Source: Dictyostelium discoideum
Taxonomy: Eukaryota
Length of the DNA stretch: 64,000 bases
Reading direction: 5' to 3'
Assembly (NCBI GenBank): GCA_000004695.1
Contig: CM000150.2
Location: 1,472,001-1,536,000, forward strand
Shown: positions 2,730 through 40,158 of the stretch, in pieces
Layout: every line of letters begins with the position of its first letter
Numbering within the stretch: the first letter of the stretch is position 1
Program-made: the position numbers and the translations under genes
Notes under the pieces: model-generated
Databases searched by the model: none
Told to the model about the DNA's origin: nothing
The model's input: the letters and a program-made list of their open reading frames with translations, nothing else

Positions 2730-2773
<44 letters not shown>

Positions 2774-2896
2774 ATGACAGTCACCACTTGGATTTACAAT
2801 AGCTATTATTAATACAACTCGTTTGTTTGAGTTGGAATTTAAGATTTGAGACTTGAGATATCCTGTACTTTAATATAAGTTTTGTACTTTAGCGAG

Positions 2897-2943
<47 letters not shown>

Positions 2944-3175
2944 ATACCAATAATAACAGCAAAATGAATAAATGCAACTATAATATAGGATAAGAAATTG
3001 GATAGAGTTTATACCTTAATTAATTATTGATTTTTTTTTTTTTTTTTCCAAACTGGGTTTAATAACGCCATGTGAGAGCTATTATTATTATTTCTAATGG
3101 AAAGCAGTAATTACATTAGTTTGTTTGAGTTGAGATTGGAGATGGAATCATATGCAATAATCCAAAAAAAAAAAA
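2663..3175. repeat. Degenerate tandem duplication of two ~230-bp units. Each unit has an internal T-run and a terminal A-run.
   Basis: Unit A (~2663-2935) and unit B (~2941-3175) share blocks such as caaCTAtAATATAGGaTAAgAAATTgGATAgAGTTTATACcTTAATTA and GTTTGTTTGAGTTG(G/A)GATT at ~60-65% identity. Unit A carries TGATGAC right after its T-run. Confidence 0.4.
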
Positions 3176-3253
3176 TAAAAGATAAAAAATTAAAAATTAA
3201 AAAATTAAAAACTAATACACTATATATATATTAAACTATTATTATTTTATTTT

Positions 3254-6148
<2,895 letters not shown>

Positions 6149-6999: not shown

Positions 7000-7134
7000 T
7001 AAAATATTTTTAGAAAATTTTCTTAACTCAAATCATGGTGTTATTAATAATATTAAATGATGTATAAAAAAAAACTTTATTTTTATTTTTATTTTGAATA
7101 TTGTTTTTTTTTTTTTTTCAAGAATTCATGAGGA

Positions 7135-7141
7135 CCCATAA
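7135..7141 (+). promoter_or_regulatory. DUSE-like snRNA upstream element (gaCCCATAAaaa) about 60 bp upstream of the + U2 copy
   Basis: cccataa at 7135-7141 sits in a slightly GC-richer patch (gaattcatgaggacccataaaaa) within the AT-rich spacer. Confidence 0.5.
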
Positions 7142-7197
7142 AAATAAAAAGTTAATACTTTTAAATAAAAAAAGAAATAATTTCATTTTGAAAAGGT

Positions 7198-7407
7198 ACC
7201 TTCTTGAAGCGTCTCGCTTTGATCATGTGTAGTATCTGTTCTAGAAAGCTTAATCTCTTTCTGCCATCACACGTTGATGTGCATATTCGATTAAACTTAT
7301 TTTTCTTCGAGGTGAGGTCATATGTTTGGTGCTTGCATCATTCGACCTCTACGCATTCGCTCTGTATTGCACAACTTCAGAGATTTACGAGAGTGCGCCT
7401 CACCCCC
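7198..7407 (+). ncRNA. U2: U2 spliceosomal snRNA gene, copy 2, a perfect inverted duplicate of copy 1
   Basis: The same sequence as 6645..6854 lies on the + strand. The inverted repeat spans ~6621-6868 and 7184-7437. The two genes are transcribed divergently from a ~340-bp spacer. Confidence 0.8.
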
Positions 7408-7678
7408 TTTTTTTATTTAAATTTAAAGAAAAAAAAAAAAAAGTAATAATTTAATAACAAAATTTAAGAAATAAAATTAAATAAAAAATTAAATTTATTT
7501 ATTTATTTATTTATACATGAATAATAAAAATAAGAAAGGGAGATAAGAACCTGTTTTATTTATTTTTTATTTTTATTTTTTTTTTTTATTTTTTTTTTTA
7601 TTTAATCAATGTAAATGGATATATTGACTAGAGTCATCGTTTTAATTTATAATTTAATATTTATTATTATTTTTAATT

Positions 7679-8043
7679 TTATAAAAGCATTTTATTTGCA
7701 CACCAAATTCTTTGTAAAATATCATTTTGTACATCATTTAAAGAACTCCAAAGTTCTCTTTGAATTGCAGGTAAACCATTAACTTCTTTTCTTTCACAAG
7801 CGATTAATAGGTTGTTTAAGATTGCGATAGTTTCTTCAGACAATTCAGAACCTGCACTATATTGAGAATGTTGTTCATTTATATCATTTACTAATTTACT
7901 AAGTTGTGCTTGTGATTTTGAAAAACTATCTTGTAAAATATATAATAAAAATAATGATACACGTGTTTCAATTAAAATAAATGGATATAATGACATACTA
8001 ACTGATGATGGTAATATTGTATTATTATTTATATTATTATTTA

Positions 8044-8080
<37 letters not shown>

Positions 8081-8888
8081 GTTATTAATATCATTAAAAA
8101 AATTATTATGATTACTATTATTATTAATTTGATCAAAACTACTATTAGTTGTTGTATTTAGTAATGATAATTGATTCATTCTAGATTCTAATGGTTGTGT
8201 TGTTTCACCTGCAATATTTACAATTAAATCTAAATAATCACAAGCACCCTTATAATCCCATTCCATAATTTTACAATATGCTGCTTCTTTTAATGAGTTG
8301 ATTGCACTTATTGGACTTTCTGTCCTTTGAATTTCTGCTGCCTTTTGAAAATATTCTGCACCTTCTTCTAATTTATTTAATCTTTTTAATATTGATGCCA
8401 TTTCAAAATATAATGTACCCATTATACTAAATCTTTTATAATTTTGATAAATCTTTTTTTTTATAAAAGTAAATAAAAAAAATAAAAAAATTAATATTAA
8501 TAAATATATATATATATAATAATGATGTTTTTTTTTTTTTAAAATTTACTTTTATAGCTAATAAATAACAATTAATTGCTTCAGGTATATTCTCTTCAAA
8601 TGATATTATTTCAGATTCATTTGTTGAAATTTCATTTTCCCATATTAAATAACCAGCATCAATATAACATGAGGCTTCTGCTGATGATGAAGCTTTAATT
8701 GCTTGTTCACATCTACCAATTGATAGACAACAAAATGCTGCATATATATTATTACCTTCACGTTTAAATGAATTCATTACTTGTGTATATTGATCAACTG
8801 CTTCTGAATAATTTGGTTTCCTCATTGGAAACTTTTTTTTTTTTAATTTTTGTGATATTAATTTATAAGAATCTATTAAATGACTCAT
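7679..8888 (-). CDS. Soluble NSF attachment protein (SNAP) family, TPR-like, probably the gamma-SNAP-type paralogue
   Basis: There are two exons, complement(8550..8888) and complement(7679..8452), with a 97-bp intron at 8453..8549 (GTAAAT donor, AG acceptor, phase 0). The joined product reads ...DAGYLIWENE..EAINCYLLAIK|IYQNYKRFSIMGTLYFEMASILKRLNKLEEGAEYFQKAAEI... This aligns with alpha-SNAP [44 protein letters not shown]. A poly-N insertion lies in the middle. Confidence 0.65.
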
Positions 8889-22430: not shown

Positions 22431-34056
<11,626 letters not shown>

Positions 34057-34457
34057 AAAATAAAAAAAATAAAATTTAAAAATTAAAGGATTTAGTAAGA
34101 TGATTGAGTTTTTTTTTTGAAATAATTATTATTTTGGTTGGATAATAGTTGCTTCTCTTTTATATACTTTTTTTTTTAATATTGATTATTCAGTGTTTAT
34201 CCATTATAGGAAATAAACAATTATATATATTATTTAATATCTGGATTTTAAAATGTAAAATAGTTTTAATTTTTAAATAACATATAAAACGAAAAATCAG
34301 TTTTCATTTTTAAATCACATATAAAAACATATTATCAATTTATGTATTCAGAATATTATAACCAATATATTTAATTTACATGTTTTGGTTTTTTTTTTTT
34401 TTTTTTTTTTTTTTATTTTTATTATGGAATGTAAAAAAATTGTTGGGAATCGAACCT

Positions 34458-35960
34458 TTTTTTTTTTTTTTTGATATAAATAAACTATTGTAGTATACAA
34501 TTAGTATGTTATTTTTATTTATTTATTTTAGGTTTTTTAATTTTTGTGAATTTAAAATGGTATGTTATTTTAGATTAGGTAATTAATAATTAATTGGTGG
34601 TGTAATTGTTGGAATTGGTTCATTAGTGTTTATGCTCCATTCTTTTTTAAATTTTTTGATTGTTTCGGACCATTGGGTTTCTTTTTGAGTTTTTGTGAGG
34701 TTGTTTTTAATTGAGTATTGGTTAAAGTTTGATAATGTTCTTGAATATTCCAATCTTTTTAGCTTGTGCCATTTTGATTTTAATATATCATAATCTAATG
34801 TTGTGTTGTTTATTTGGTTGTTCCAATTATCAATTGATTGAGTTATATTGATGTCAAATAATGATTTGCATAACCATATCCATATTTGGTGAATAACTAA
34901 TGAGATTATGTTCCAATATGCATGTGTTTTGACTAGATCAAGATTTGTGTTTATATAATTCCAGTTGAACCTGTATTTTTTATATTGTGCATTTTTTGCA
35001 AAATGAAAATTAATATTGATAGTTGGATCTGGTTTAAATGCTTTGTTGTTTATTTGTGGTTTATAAATGAGTGTGTATAATTTTGTTGTTTGGTTTTTTG
35101 TTAGTGACCAGTTTTTGTTTCCATTGCAATTTTTATATATAAAATATTTTAATTTGTCGTGGTTTATGAAGTTGATTGTGTGCTGACAATTGAAAAACAA
35201 ATGACCATAGGGGTCATTATTCATTTCATTTTTGCAAATGGGGCCAACTTTGTTGTGTAGATGATTAATTTGCATTGTATCACGGCCTTTTGGATCTTTT
35301 AATTTTTGAATTTTGACAAATAGTTGGTGGTATGTGTATTTCCATAATAGTTGTATTGATTGTTGGTGCGAAGTAAGAAGTAGATCTGAATATTTCTTGC
35401 CACCTCCGCCCATATTAAATTTAATATGGACACCACATAGTCTTTTGATTTGCATTGGTGATTGTTGAGTATTGTAGAGTAGATTTCTTTGAGTGTTGGT
35501 GGTAGTGAAATATTATTTGTGATTAATGTTTGAGAGGTTTGGTTTTTTATTAATATTGGTTGTAGGGTTTGAACTTTATCTTTTAGATGTCCAATTTGAG
35601 TTGCATAGTTTTCCCATTCTTTTTTAATTTTTATAAGGTATGGAGAAGAGATTGATTTGTTGATTATTTGATCCATCCAACTTATCATGTATATTGAATT
35701 GTTTGCAGATTTATGCATTTGTAAAAATCTGTTGTATATCCAAATCTTTTGAGCAACTTGTCGTAATTGTATATTCCAAAATACCCCAACCACCTTCTTT
35801 TAATGGTTTTAATGATCTATCATAACACATCAAAGGTATTTTTTCACGTGAATGGATGGTTAATGTGTTGTTTTCAATGGAATTGGTATTGAGAGAATTC
35901 ATAAACCATGAGATTAATTTATTAATTTGAATTTCTTCATCTTTTGTAAATTCTTCAAGT
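34458..35960 (-). mobile_element. 5'-truncated non-LTR (TRE3-type, tRNA-gene-targeted) retrotransposon fragment. It carries the ORF2 C-terminal Cys-rich region, the 3' UTR and the poly(A) tail.
   Basis: Minus-strand ORFs in three frames (35711..35902, 35299..35793, 34583..35455) encode a retroelement ORF2 C-terminus with a CKNEMNNDPYGHLFFNCQH cysteine motif. The overlap across frames shows frameshift decay. The 3' UTR is 34474-34582, and T16 at 34458-34473 is the poly(A) on the minus strand. The element lies ~80 bp downstream of the tRNA-Trp at 36042..36128, in the same orientation. It is flanked by the 17-bp direct repeat ttgttgggaatcgaacc (34441-34457 and 35994-36010). Confidence 0.6.
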
Positions 35961-35998
35961 TAGAAATCAAAATAATGTTAAATTGAATAAATTTGTTG

Positions 35999-36009
35999 GG
36001 AATCGAACC
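35999..36009 (-). promoter_or_regulatory. ex-B box (downstream B-box-like GGTTCGATTCC) ~33 bp 3' of the tRNA-Trp gene
   Basis: The minus strand reads ...TCAAAGGTTCGATTCCCAACAA. Dictyostelium tRNA genes commonly carry an external B box in the 3' flank. Confidence 0.5.
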
Positions 36010-36041
36010 TTTGATTTTAGAAAGTCTCTTAAAAAAATGAC

Positions 36042-36128
36042 AGACCCCTCAGGGAGTTGAACCCTGGACCAACTGCTAACTTCTAACGTTTTGGAGACAA
36101 TTACAATAAACCACTATGCTAAGGAGTC
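36042..36128 (-). tRNA. trnW-CCA: tRNA-Trp (anticodon CCA) with a 13-nt intron
   Basis: The reverse complement is GACTCCTTAGCATAGTGGTTTATTGTAATTGTCTCCAAAACGTTAGAAGTTAGCAGTTGGTCCAGGGTTCAACTCCCTGAGGGGTCT. The acceptor pairs GACTCCT with AGGGGTC, with one G-U. The D-loop is AGTGG. The anticodon stem pairs ATTGT with GCAGT, and the loop is C-U-CCA-A-[intron AACGTTAGAAGTT = plus 36078..36090]-A. The T-arm is CAGGG-TTCAACT-CCCTG. The discriminator is T, followed by a T7 terminator. Confidence 0.75.
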
Positions 36129-36400
36129 TTTGAAAATTCACTGGATGAAACACTTTGTTAACACCTCATTTTTTTCGGTGAAACACTATGTTATGGAGTC
36201 ATTAATTTTTATGTCAATAACATGCTGGAATTTAGCTGGCGAAAATTAAAATTGAAAACCAATTGGATGACTCACTTTCCTAAGCCCTCATTTTTTTGGG
36301 TGAAACACTATGTTAAGAAGTCATTACTTTTTATGTCAATAATATGCTGAAATTAAGCTGGCAAATATTAATATTATACCTAGTTATAATAATTACAAAA
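36129..36400 (-). repeat. About 2.3 tandem copies of a ~117-bp module immediately upstream of tRNA-Trp. Each module is the 5'-flank plus a degenerate copy of the first ~20 nt of the tRNA.
   Basis: Repeating blocks (plus strand) read gtgaaacactatgtta(t/a)g(g/a)agtcatta.tttttatgtcaataa(c/t)atgctg(g/a)aatt(t/a)agctggc(g/a)aaa(a/t)attaa.attgaaaaccaattggatga.(a/t)cactttg.taa(c/g).cctcatttttttgg. The subsequence acactatgtta.ggagtc mimics the tRNA 5' end ccactatgctaaggagtc. Confidence 0.55.
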
Positions 36401-36789
36401 AACAAATAGTTTTTTTTTTTAAAAAAAGAGGTATAAAAAAATTATATGGATTAATAATAATAAATTTTTTTGAATAACAATTAAATATTATTATTTTGGC
36501 GAATGCACATCACTTATTGAATTTCTTTTTTTATTTTTTATTTTTTTATATATACCCCATTGTAAAGCTTAATAAAGTAAAAAATATTAAATCCATTTAT
36601 CTAATTAATAGATGAAGTAAAAAAAAATTATATATCGTATAGTGATTTTTTAGTGTTCTATCTATACTAATAAATATTAATAATGAATATTAAAAATAAT
36701 TAAAATTAAATCATTGTTAAAAAAAAAAAAAAAATGAATTTAATCGTTCTGTTTTTTTTTTTTTAATTTTTATTTTCTCCAGCTAAATT

Positions 36790-37040
36790 CCAACATGTTA
36801 ATAGCTTAAAAAAATGAATGTATTAATTCTGTTTTTAGCTGGCAAAAATTAAAATTGAAAACCAACTGGATGGCACACTTTGCTAATGTCTCATTTTTTT
36901 AATTAGTTATCAACCTGAAAATAAACATAGTGGTTTATTGTATTTGTCTCCAAAAATGAGGGCTTAACAAAGTGTGCCATCCAGTTGGTTTTCAATTTTA
37001 ATTTTCGACAGCTAAAAACAGAATTAATACATTCATTTTT
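36790..37040. repeat. Inverted repeat of two ~90-bp module copies (~36805-36900 and 36945-37037). The central spacer holds a plus-oriented tRNA-Trp 5' fragment catagtggtttattgtatttgtctcc.
   Basis: The left arm reads ...gaatgtattaattctgtttttagctggcaaaaattaaaattgaaaaccaactggatggcacactttgctaa... The right arm reads ...ttaacaaagtgtgccatccagttggttttcaattttaattttcgacagctaaaaacagaattaatacattc... The arms are reverse complements of each other. Confidence 0.55.
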
Positions 37041-38298: not shown

Positions 38299-39350
38299 CA
38301 AGAAAAACAAGAAAAGTAGCATGAACAACAACCACAGCAACATGTAAATTAAAAAATAGCAAAACAAAATATTAGTAACTTTTTATAATATTAAAATGAA
38401 TAAAATCTGAATGTATGGTTTGAAATCTTATTTATATAAACTCTCAAGTAAATTTTTTAAAAAAAAAATACCAGAAAGGCAGAGGAAAACGAATAAAACT
38501 TTGGAGGTTAGGTTTTTTTTTTTTAAATATAAAATCAGAAGTAATTGTGATGGTAAAGATAATAAATCATTTGTTCAAAATATTCACATTATTAAGTTTT
38601 ATTTGATCTATTAAAACTATTTATCATTAATATTTTATTAAGCAATAATTATAAAAAAACAATCTTTTTTGATTTAAATATAGGTGAGAATTCTCATTTT
38701 ATCAAGTGGTTTTATATATGTTTTTTTATAAGATTAAATAATTAAATAATAAAATTATGAAATTAATTTTTTTTTTTTTTTTTTTTTTCAGCACATTGAC
38801 CCACGAAGGCTGAGTTTGAACAACAGAGGTCTTTTAAATTTTAATCTTGTTGGATTTTTTTTTTTTTTTAATATTGAATAATAAGTGTTTATCCATTAAA
38901 GCAAATAAACAATAACTAATAGTTTTAGTTATTCATTTTCTTTAATTTTAATATTCAAATAAGGAATTTTAATAGTGTAGTAACTAATTTTTATTATTAT
39001 TATTATTAATATTGTTATCTTTTTTTAAAATATCGAGTTTTTAGATATGTTAAATATTAAATAAATTAATTTAATAAATCAAATAATATGATTATAATTG
39101 ATTAGATGAAATGGTATGATTTGGAAGAATCAGTTGATTCTTGCAAGTTAATTATCTTAATAATAGTATTTGTTTAAGGAAATCGTTTGGGTCTTTAAAA
39201 TTGTTCTGATCTTTTGAAAGAGTTAATTTACATGTTTTTTTTTTTTTTTTTATATATAAATATATATTCTGGAAATCAAATTAATGTTAAATTGAATAAA
39301 TTTGTTGGGAATCGAACCTTTGATTTTAGAAAGTTTCTTAAAAAAATGAC

Positions 39351-39437
39351 AGACCCCTCAGGGAGTTGAACCCTGGACCAACTGCTAACTTCTAACGTTT
39401 TGGAGACAATTACAATAAACCACTATGCTAAGGAGTC
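39351..39437 (-). tRNA. trnW-CCA: tRNA-Trp (CCA), second copy, identical 87-nt gene with a 13-nt intron (39387..39399)
   Basis: It is identical in sequence to 36042..36128. It has the same 3' flank TGTCATTTTTTTAAGA(G/A)ACTTTCTAAAATCAAAGGTTCGATTCCCAACAAATTTATTCAATTTAACATTA. The ex-B box is at 39308..39318. Confidence 0.75.
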
Positions 39438-39904
39438 CTTGAAAAATCAATTGGATGAAACACTTTGCTAAGGCCTCAATTTTATTGGAAAACCCAAATT
39501 AATCAGAAAATTTCCAGATTTTTAACTTTTTAAAGTAAAATAAAAAATAGAAAGAAAATAAGATGAAAATTACAAACAACACCACAAATATTAAGCAACA
39601 CAAATGCCTACAAAAAATAAGCGAAATTGTGGATAAAACTCAAATAAAAAAAACAATTCAAATATGTCATCAACATCAATCACGAACCAGACGATAAAAT
39701 AAAAAAAGATTTAGAAAAAGTTTGGACAAAAAAGATGTTTAATCAAAAGTAATAATACAATTCAAAATTTGAAACAAAAAAAAAAAAAAAAAAAAAAAAA
39801 AAGTTAACTAACCCCTCTTTTAGAGACCCTGTAAAAAACTACAAATAAAATGAGATCAAGCAGGAGAAGCAACTAATAATTGCGTTATCCAATTCAAAAA
39901 AAAA

Positions 39905-40090
39905 AAAAAAAAAAAAGCCTCATTTTTTTGGAAACAAATACAATTACAATAAACCACTATGCTAAGGAGTCCTTGAAAACCAACTGGATGACACACTTTG
40001 CCAAGGTCTCATTTTTTGGGGTGAAACACTGTGCCAAGGAGTCATTACTTTTTATGTCAATAACATGCTGGAATCTAGCTGGCGAAAAAT
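39905..40090 (-). repeat. Module repeat plus a truncated tRNA-Trp 5' fragment (32 nt at 39940..39971), an orphan piece of the tRNA-Trp upstream repeat
   Basis: acaattacaataaaccactatgctaaggagtc is the reverse complement of the first 32 nt of tRNA-Trp. It is followed by the module cttgaaaaccaactggatgacacactttgccaaggtctcattttttggggtgaaacactgtgccaaggagtcattactttttatgtcaataacatgctggaatctagctggcgaaaaat. Confidence 0.55.
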
Positions 40091-40121
40091 AAAAAATAAA
40101 AAAAAACAGAATGATTACTTT

Positions 40122-40158
<37 letters not shown>

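Follow-up and report, generated by a model that had tools for sequence, protein, structure and literature searches.

Behind one of two tRNA-Trp(CCA) genes in a 64,000-nt stretch of Dictyostelium discoideum DNA (the whole stretch analysed here, hereafter the window) lies the remnant of a retroelement, and one and the same 17-mer is found beside its poly(A) tail and again on the side of the tRNA gene. The locus raises the question of which element was inserted at this position, and whether the repeated 17-mer is the target-site duplication left behind by its integration, as had been proposed in an earlier sequence-only reading of this DNA. Descriptions of TRE3 elements and of their homing behind the tRNA genes of D. 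discoideum date back to the late 1990s. [quoted passage not shown]

Genomic setting and the two tRNA-Trp genes

The window has a G+C content of about 22%, and its retroelement proteins match gene models of D. discoideum AX4. The element is intergenic and situated just behind an ORF of 3,690 codons, which ends at 34056 (all coordinates are those of the window; Table 1). In assembly GCA_054883475.1, the same locus is found at CM142508.1:1316218-1329084. ARAGORN predicts both tRNA-Trp genes to be one base longer on either side than Rfam does; with the Rfam boundaries, the only difference between the two is found at position -1, and the mature tRNAs are identical. Beyond these two tRNAs, the Rfam scan returned nothing. 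The spacer that separates the first tRNA gene from the ex-B box contains a T7 run, which is likely the Pol III terminator, and carries an AAA at its ex-B-box end, which, judging from the junction between poly(A) and target, is the probable site of the first nick.

The neighbourhood is rich in related sequence. Partial tRNA-Trp copies and tandem or inverted units of about 122 bp occur nearby (36097-36401, 36810-37040, 36926-36960 and 39940-40122), and the structure of this neighbourhood is not alike in the two assemblies compared. In addition, a TRE5-type fragment (39489-39916) is located upstream of tRNA-Trp copy 2 and displays the position and orientation pattern of TRE5; no similarity was found between this fragment and the TRE3-B remnant described below.

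Table 1. Positions of the features at the filled (locus 1) and the empty (locus 2) tRNA-Trp locus of the window
Feature	Position	Strand	Evidence or remark
Far flank of locus 1 (paralogue in locus 2: 38860-39271)	34168-34425		Flank comparison
Poly(A)-side copy of the putative duplicated target, 31 nt	34426-34456	minus	Exact 17-mer 34440-34456 plus GGAATGTAAAAAAA
A16 tail (T16 on the plus strand)	34457-34472	minus	Directly after the 17-mer; element homology ends here
TRE3-B 3' UTR, 110 nt	34473-34582	minus	Colinear with the 3' ends of L001, L002, L004 and L007
TRE3-B ORF2 C-terminal remnant, 5'-truncated after the RT domain	34583-35962	minus	BLASTN, global alignment, translation compared with P0001/P0014
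tRNA-side copy of the putative duplicated target, 47 nt	35963-36009	minus	17-mer 35993-36009 plus 30 nt; 45/47 identical to 39272-39318
Spacer between tRNA and ex-B box, 32 nt	36010-36041	minus	Read from the sequence
tRNA-Trp(CCA) copy 1, with intron	36042-36128	minus	Rfam RF00005, 44.8 bits; ARAGORN 36041-36129
Internal B box of tRNA-Trp copy 1, GGTTCAACTCC	36053-36063	minus	B-box scan
Paralogous empty site with a single 17-mer/ex-B box (39302-39318) and tRNA-Trp copy 2	39272-39437	minus	No TRE3-B homology
tRNA-Trp(CCA) copy 2, with intron	39351-39437	minus	Rfam; ARAGORN 39350-39438

Identity and structure of the element

For the classification of the element, three reading-frame pieces of the minus-strand ORF2 were stitched into one protein query. 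This query matched the D. discoideum protein P0001 with 90% identity at 100% coverage (E=3e-270), and the cluster of P0001 includes GenBank AAC27746.1, which is described as 'similar to HC domain of Tdd-3 and DRE'. A second match, with 84% identity over 56% of the query length, was obtained to P0006, the cluster of which comprises P0032, i.e. DDB_G0291686, a gene that is listed as 'TRE3-B ORF2' in Table 2 of PMC12405889. P0032 is in turn 97% identical to P0014, a gene model of 1,389 aa in the P0001 cluster, whose locus constitutes a near full-length element of about 4.8 kb with the Pfam domains Exo_endo_phos (APE) and RVT_1. The next most similar protein cluster reached an identity of only 34%, and a Pfam search with the stitched ORF2 remnant yielded no domain, as expected for a 5'-truncated copy.

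The comparison at the DNA level points in the same direction. With the L002 copy, taken from the gene models of assembly GCA_054883475.1, as full-length reference, window positions 35962-34457 align to L002 positions 7083-8606 with 97.6% identity over 1.47 kb and 5 indels, and the match continues through the 3' UTR into the poly(A) (BLASTN and global alignment). No other TRE3-B sequence was found in the window with this reference as query. On the strength of these protein and DNA matches, the element is assigned to TRE3-B and not to TRE5, the name being drawn from the gene-product label in Table 2 of PMC12405889; the TRE3-type affiliation suggested earlier is borne out in this respect.

On the minus strand, homology to the element extends from 35962 to 34457 and comprises 1,506 bp, which correspond to about positions 3244-4764 of the ~4.8-kb element and thus to its 3' third. 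Consequently, ORF1, APE and RT are absent, and the part of ORF2 that was kept is the post-RT region, which terminates with a stop codon at 34583-34585. This remnant is disrupted by a 1-nt insertion (+1 T) at 35781, which causes a frameshift, by a 32-nt palindromic insertion at 35403-35434 and by two 24-nt deletions near 35895 and near 35269, the latter of which removed the residues RFHARCLP just before the zinc knuckle. The CCHC knuckle itself is also affected, its first Cys being replaced by Gly (VCPIC to VGPIC). The element possesses a poly(A) tail but no LTR. The segment 34457-35962 (minus strand) thus represents a TRE3-B copy that is 5'-truncated and dead, and the sequence-only description of a truncated element of about 1.5 kb with a frameshifted ORF2 C-terminus, a 3' UTR of about 110 nt and an A16 tail holds in all of these points.

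Regarding its position, the 5' end of the element (35962) is located 79 nt downstream of the 3' end of tRNA-Trp copy 1 (36042), and both are encoded on the minus strand, in agreement with the distance of about 80 bp on the same strand that had been noted before. The window copy exhibits the distance of 40-150 bp, the orientation relative to the tRNA gene and the association with a B box that are characteristic of TRE3, and not the location about 48 bp upstream in opposite orientation that is typical of TRE5. The proposed position-specific, TRE3-like integration downstream of the tRNA gene is supported by the published range, within which the 79 nt fall (PMC5911963).

External B boxes and insertion junctions

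The 17-mer TTGTTGGGAATCGAACC occurs in exact form at 34440-34456, 35993-36009 and 39302-39318; these three occurrences compare with 0.03 expected by chance, and none of 100 shuffles reached three. Its twofold presence at the filled locus as an exact repeat was recognized correctly by the sequence-only reading, whose coordinates need to be lowered by one base. Read as its reverse complement, GGTTCGATTCCCAACAA, the 17-mer opens with GGTTCGATTCC, a perfect B-box consensus, which confirms that the repeat overlaps an ex-B box. In the 64 kb analysed, the motif GGTTCRANYCC is restricted to tRNA and ex-B sites: five sites were found, as opposed to 0.12 expected, two of which are internal and three external B boxes. 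Accordingly, a perfect GGTTCGATTCC ex-B box is present at both ends of the insertion, at 35999-36009 and at 34446-34456.

Read along the sense strand, the tRNA gene is followed by the 32-nt spacer with its T-run, by GGTTCGATTCCCAACAA and by the 30 nt ATTTATTCAATTTAACATTATTTTGATTTC, to which the 5' end of TRE3-B, (TAA)CTTGAAGAATTT, is joined; on the 3' side, A16 is followed by GGTTCGATTCCCAACAA again and then by TTTTTTTACATTCC. Comparison with the full-length copy demonstrates that the homology to TRE3-B stops at 35959-35962. The 30 nt between the tRNA-side 17-mer and the element (35963-35992) are not part of TRE3-B; they are identical at 29 of 30 positions to 39272-39301 of the empty locus, where their position behind the 17-mer is the same. 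Only at the poly(A) end does the exact 17-mer border directly on the element; on the tRNA side, 30 nt separate it from the 5' end. Because the two copies of a target-site duplication have to adjoin the element directly, one at each end, the notion of a 17-bp target-site duplication is wrong in the form in which it was put forward.

Since the 30 nt are target DNA and not TRE3-B, the duplicated segment would extend from the ex-B box as far as the 5' junction. The best reading is that the 17-mer represents the perfectly preserved core of a duplicated target segment of 31-47 nt. On the tRNA side, the duplication would amount to as much as 50 nt with the AAA/TTT beside the tail included. In the segment next to the poly(A), GGAATGTAAAAAAA aligns to the 30-nt stretch of the tRNA side with gaps of 10, 6 and 1 nt, a homology that is not significant on its own in AT-rich DNA and rests on its collinearity with the flank. 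An alignment of the junctions with the empty site places the 17-mer twice at the filled locus and once at the empty one, so that the 17-mer is indeed duplicated relative to the empty site. A short duplication of about 10 bp at the actual junctions was considered and rejected, as the 10 nt that precede the 5' end do not recur behind the poly(A).

The second tRNA-Trp locus as empty site

The second tRNA-Trp locus carries the 17-mer once and is devoid of TRE3-B homology, as had been stated before. Its relation to the filled locus extends to the far side of the element: 34168-34221 matches 38860-38913 at 91%, and TTAATTTACATG with the adjoining T-run at 34369 matches the same sequence at 39225. 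As the far flank of locus 1 is thus paralogous to locus 2, the latter spans the insertion point uninterrupted.

On the tRNA-proximal side, the similarity between the two loci is considerably higher. Here, 35963-36173 and 39272-39483 are 95% identical, and the 78 nt that follow the tRNA gene show only two differences. The boundary of this block coincides exactly with the element junction, whereas the far flank is only about 68% alignable and contains many gaps. Judged from this step in divergence at the junction, the tRNA-proximal block was most likely homogenised with the second locus by gene conversion after the insertion, which would account for the three gaps by which the two duplicated segments differ. 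With locus 2 as the donor, the tRNA-side copy would be of the locus-2 type and the poly(A)-side copy would be the original one, and the duplication would have measured about 31 nt at first. A duplication of 47 nt followed by deletions in one copy is less likely, because it requires two to three deletions within 47 nt, as compared to four internal indels in the entire 1.5-kb element (a count that leaves out a 3-nt difference in tail length).

The use of the second locus as an empty-site control is justified in so far as it contains a single 17-mer and no element; it is not fully independent, given its likely conversion with locus 1. The same locus in the other assembly (L006) carries the identical insertion, and no insertion-free allele is found there. 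The idea that locus 2 lost an element by recombination between the repeats was dismissed, since the far flanks are far more diverged from each other than the element is from its relatives.

Comparison with other TRE3-B copies

Eight other copies of TRE3-B were retrieved from GCA_054883475.1, namely one each at L001, L003, L004, L005, L007 and L008 and two at L002 (Table 2). All eight are located downstream of a tRNA gene, at distances of 49-67 nt (the range for L004 being 42-50 nt), and seven of them are in the orientation of the tRNA, the copy at L004 being the exception. Duplications could be read in seven copies and comprise 7-12 bp just after the ex-B box. These lengths were measured on the fetched copies; a literature search for published TRE3 duplication lengths found none.

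Table 2. Insertion sites of the eight TRE3-B copies retrieved from GCA_054883475.1 (junction: nt between the 3' end of the tRNA gene and the 5' end of the element, or its 3' end in the case of L004)
Copy	tRNA gene	Junction	Duplication	Remark
L001	tRNA-Gln	66 nt	ATCTTTT	Same orientation
L002a	tRNA-Phe	52 nt	TCTAATTGGTAA, right after ex-B GGTTCGACTC	Full-length copy
L002b	tRNA-Asp	51 nt	ATGCATCCA	200-bp fragment
L003	tRNA-Val	~49 nt		No duplication length read; second TRE3-B follows
L004	tRNA-Phe	42-50 nt	TTAAAGCA	Opposite orientation; poly(A) end toward the tRNA
L005	tRNA-Thr	~51 nt	ATAYCCAATT	Same orientation
L007	tRNA-Gly	59 nt	TATTTTATCCCA	5' part inverted
L008	tRNA-Val	67 nt	TAAAAAGCT	Same orientation

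Measured against the 7-12 bp of the seven readable copies, the duplication of 31-47 bp at the window locus is an outlier. The position of the first nick differs as well: in the window copy it lies before the ex-B box, whereas in the other copies it lies 10-32 nt past the start of the box. The priming site of the window copy, C/AAAGG, resembles the T/AAA-type sites of L001, L002b, L005 and probably L008.

Proposed mechanism and alternative explanations

Probably, the locus is the outcome of an insertion of a TRE3-B remnant by TPRT behind tRNA-Trp, accompanied by a duplication of at least 31 bp that contains the ex-B box, and of a subsequent gene conversion. The identity, boundaries, orientation and distances of the element and the contiguity of both flanks at the empty site follow directly from the comparisons above; the TPRT steps are deduced from what is known of TREs and of non-LTR elements of the APE type (PMC5391098, introduction; PMC5911963). 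Initially, TRE3-B would home to the B-box site, which is presumably bound by TFIIIC, the targeting that the literature proposes for TRE3. Its endonuclease would then nick the antisense strand at ...GAACC(TTT)^G, i.e. at the tRNA-proximal edge of the ex-B box 29-32 nt behind the tRNA, and the T-rich 3' end would prime on the poly(A). Reverse transcription would stop or truncate after 1.5 kb, a second nick would be set about 31-47 nt further from the tRNA, and the 5' end of the element would be joined 79 nt behind the tRNA. Repair of the gap would in turn duplicate the whole ex-B box together with the next ~14-30 nt of the target. Later on, the tRNA-proximal block, up to the element junction, would have undergone gene conversion with the second tRNA-Trp locus.

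Beyond this single insertion, it is possible, if a little doubtful, that TRE3-B can prime on the tRNA-proximal side of the ex-B box while its 5' end is joined at the usual place, so that the two nicks straddle the site presumably occupied by TFIIIC. If true, this would give rise to a duplication of 31-50 bp and would leave a second, isolated ex-B box at a distance of 1.6 kb from the tRNA gene, with a potential role as an additional TFIIIC site or as a new landing pad for TRE3.

Among the alternatives, the one that fares best, albeit improbable, holds that the true duplication is a 17-20-mer and that the 30 nt were added later, for instance by break repair in which copying from locus 2 continued beyond the homologous part and was followed by non-homologous joining to the element, a route that possibly also made the present 5' truncation point. 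A duplication of 17-20 bp would be nearer to the 7-12 bp of the other TRE3-B copies, the two repeats are perfectly identical within the 17-mer and diverge beyond it, all but one of the 30 nt agree with locus 2, and the region is clearly prone to rearrangement. However, such a scenario demands a second event with a non-homologous endpoint, which nonetheless would have deposited target-like DNA in its native order and position; furthermore, the collinear shortened stretch on the poly(A) side (TGGAA..TGT.AAA..AAA) would be left as a coincidence.

Still less probable is an origin without any duplication, in which the distal ex-B box would be derived from a lost third tandem tRNA-Trp unit and a deletion would have joined the A-tail to the A-run before the ex-B box of that unit, thereby removing the third tRNA gene and the original 3' flank of the element. 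The endpoint of this deletion would have to fall 0-3 nt from the edge of the ex-B box, no trace of a third tRNA or of its 32-nt spacer is found, and the far flank runs collinear to that of locus 2, as would be the case for the original downstream DNA of the unit that is present. A lost unit would be compatible with the several partial tRNA-Trp copies and ~122-bp units in the vicinity, the structural difference between the two assemblies and the lack of a short duplication at the actual junctions.

Finally, the idea that the element is a TRE5 or another tRNA-associated type (Skipper-2, DGLT-A) with an incidental position at tRNA-Trp can practically be discarded: TRE5-type fragments do occur nearby (39489-39916), but the fragment in the window is unlike this element, which matches TRE3-B in protein and DNA, ends in a poly(A) tail, is devoid of an LTR and belongs to a family of which 8 of 8 other copies reside downstream of tRNA genes.

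Relation to known elements and biological meaning

The feature is an ordinary dead TRE3-B remnant at the canonical TRE3 position and, as such, of a kind that is already known. With TRE3-B it shares the DNA identity of 97.6%, including the 3' UTR and the poly(A), the ORF2 identity of about 90% to proteins that cluster with the TRE3-B-labelled gene, and the location downstream of a tRNA gene, in the same orientation and beside an ex-B box. On the other hand, the window copy is a dead 3' third with a broken zinc knuckle, and its duplication of 31-47 nt includes a whole ex-B box, as opposed to the 7-12 bp after the ex-B box elsewhere. Among more distant systems, mammalian L1 is similarly characterized by APE-type TPRT, an A-tail, 5' truncation, a variable spacing of the second nick and occasional long duplications, but is not targeted to Pol III genes. 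TRE5-A (DRE) is a related APE-RT-zinc-finger non-LTR element that likewise makes use of the Pol III machinery at tRNA genes and of TPRT, yet it integrates about 48 bp upstream of them and in opposite orientation. [quoted passage not shown]

The biological significance of the locus is small, and the long duplication with its ex-B box is a minor curiosity. For the analysis of comparable insertions, the locus illustrates that an exact repeat beside a poly(A) tail is not automatically a target-site duplication and should be checked against the true 5' boundary of the element, and that a paralogous 'empty site' may have been homogenised in part with its filled counterpart. Provided that the long duplication is genuine, it would add a small data point on the spacing of the TRE3-B nicks relative to the ex-B box.

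Other copies of TRE3-B

Among the TRE3-B copies at other loci of GCA_054883475.1, the one in L007 carries a 5' segment (positions 12-880 of the full-length reference element) that is inverted relative to the 3' segment (2746-4763) and is accompanied by a clean 12-bp duplication, TATTTTATCCCA. Its structure resembles the twin-priming inversions known from L1. The L004 copy, with the duplication TTAAAGCA, is oriented opposite to its tRNA-Phe gene, the external B box adjoining the poly(A) end. It departs from the rule given in PMC5911963 that TRE3 shares the orientation of the tRNA gene. In L003, a 5'-truncated TRE3-B lies behind tRNA-Val, and right after it comes the 5' end of another TRE3-B; such TRE-TRE tandems are reported in PMC5391098. 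The copy in the window alone features a 32-nt insertion, GGTGTCCATATTAAATTTAATATGGGCGGAGG, with the palindromic core CCATATTAAATTTAATATGG.

Features at the tRNA-Trp loci and at other TRE3-B copies
Feature	Sequence	Position	Strand	Remarks
TRE3-B copy	L004	4517-7744		tRNA-Phe at 7795-7868 (-)
TRE3-B copy	L007	2212-5099		
TRE3-B pair behind tRNA-Val	L003	4600-6400		
32-nt insertion	window	35403-35434		only in the window's TRE3-B copy
Altered tRNA-Trp copy 1 site	L006	3981-4681		corresponds to window 36093-36112
Repeat/tRNA-Trp-like stretches	window	36097-36401, 36810-37040, 36926-36960, 39940-40122		
Poly(A) retro-fragment, ~430 bp	window	39489-39916	+	flanking repeats 39473-39488 and 39917-39931

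Surroundings of the two tRNA-Trp genes

At the corresponding locus of GCA_054883475.1 (L006), the TRE3-B element matches that of the window at 100% identity, junctions included, while tRNA-Trp copy 1 is destroyed by 701 bp, consisting of two TRE5-type poly(A) fragments, in place of ~20 nt of the gene body. ARAGORN did not detect copy 1 in L006, copy 2 being the sole tRNA-Trp found. The strains differ here either by a structural polymorphism or in their assembly.

The retro-fragment near tRNA-Trp copy 2 contains two A-runs (39777-39803, 39896-39916). It begins 51 nt upstream of the gene and on the opposite strand, which is the canonical TRE5-type position, and is bordered on both sides by a direct repeat of 15-16 nt (gcctca[a]tttt[a/t]ttgg). 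In L002, a further locus with TRE3-B copies, members of the fragment's repeat family likewise lie upstream of the tRNA-Phe and tRNA-Asp genes, on the opposite strand. Moreover, both tRNA-Trp genes are preceded by tandem units of ~122 bp, each of which includes a stretch similar to the tRNA-Trp 5' half, and an inverted pair (36810-36898 and 36952-37040, 93% complementary) encloses a plus-strand tRNA-Trp fragment, CATAGTGGTTTATTGTATTTGTCTCCAAAAATGAGGGC.

Sequence identity between the tRNA-Trp loci

The two loci share a block of 95% identity (window 35963-36173 versus 39272-39483), whose two ends lie at the TRE3-B junction of the copy 1 locus and the TRE5-type junction of the copy 2 locus, whereas the flanks beyond both junctions are far more diverged. 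This coincidence of the block ends with insertion junctions, together with the diverged outer flanks, suggests gene conversion tracts between the tRNA-Trp loci that are limited by the insertions.
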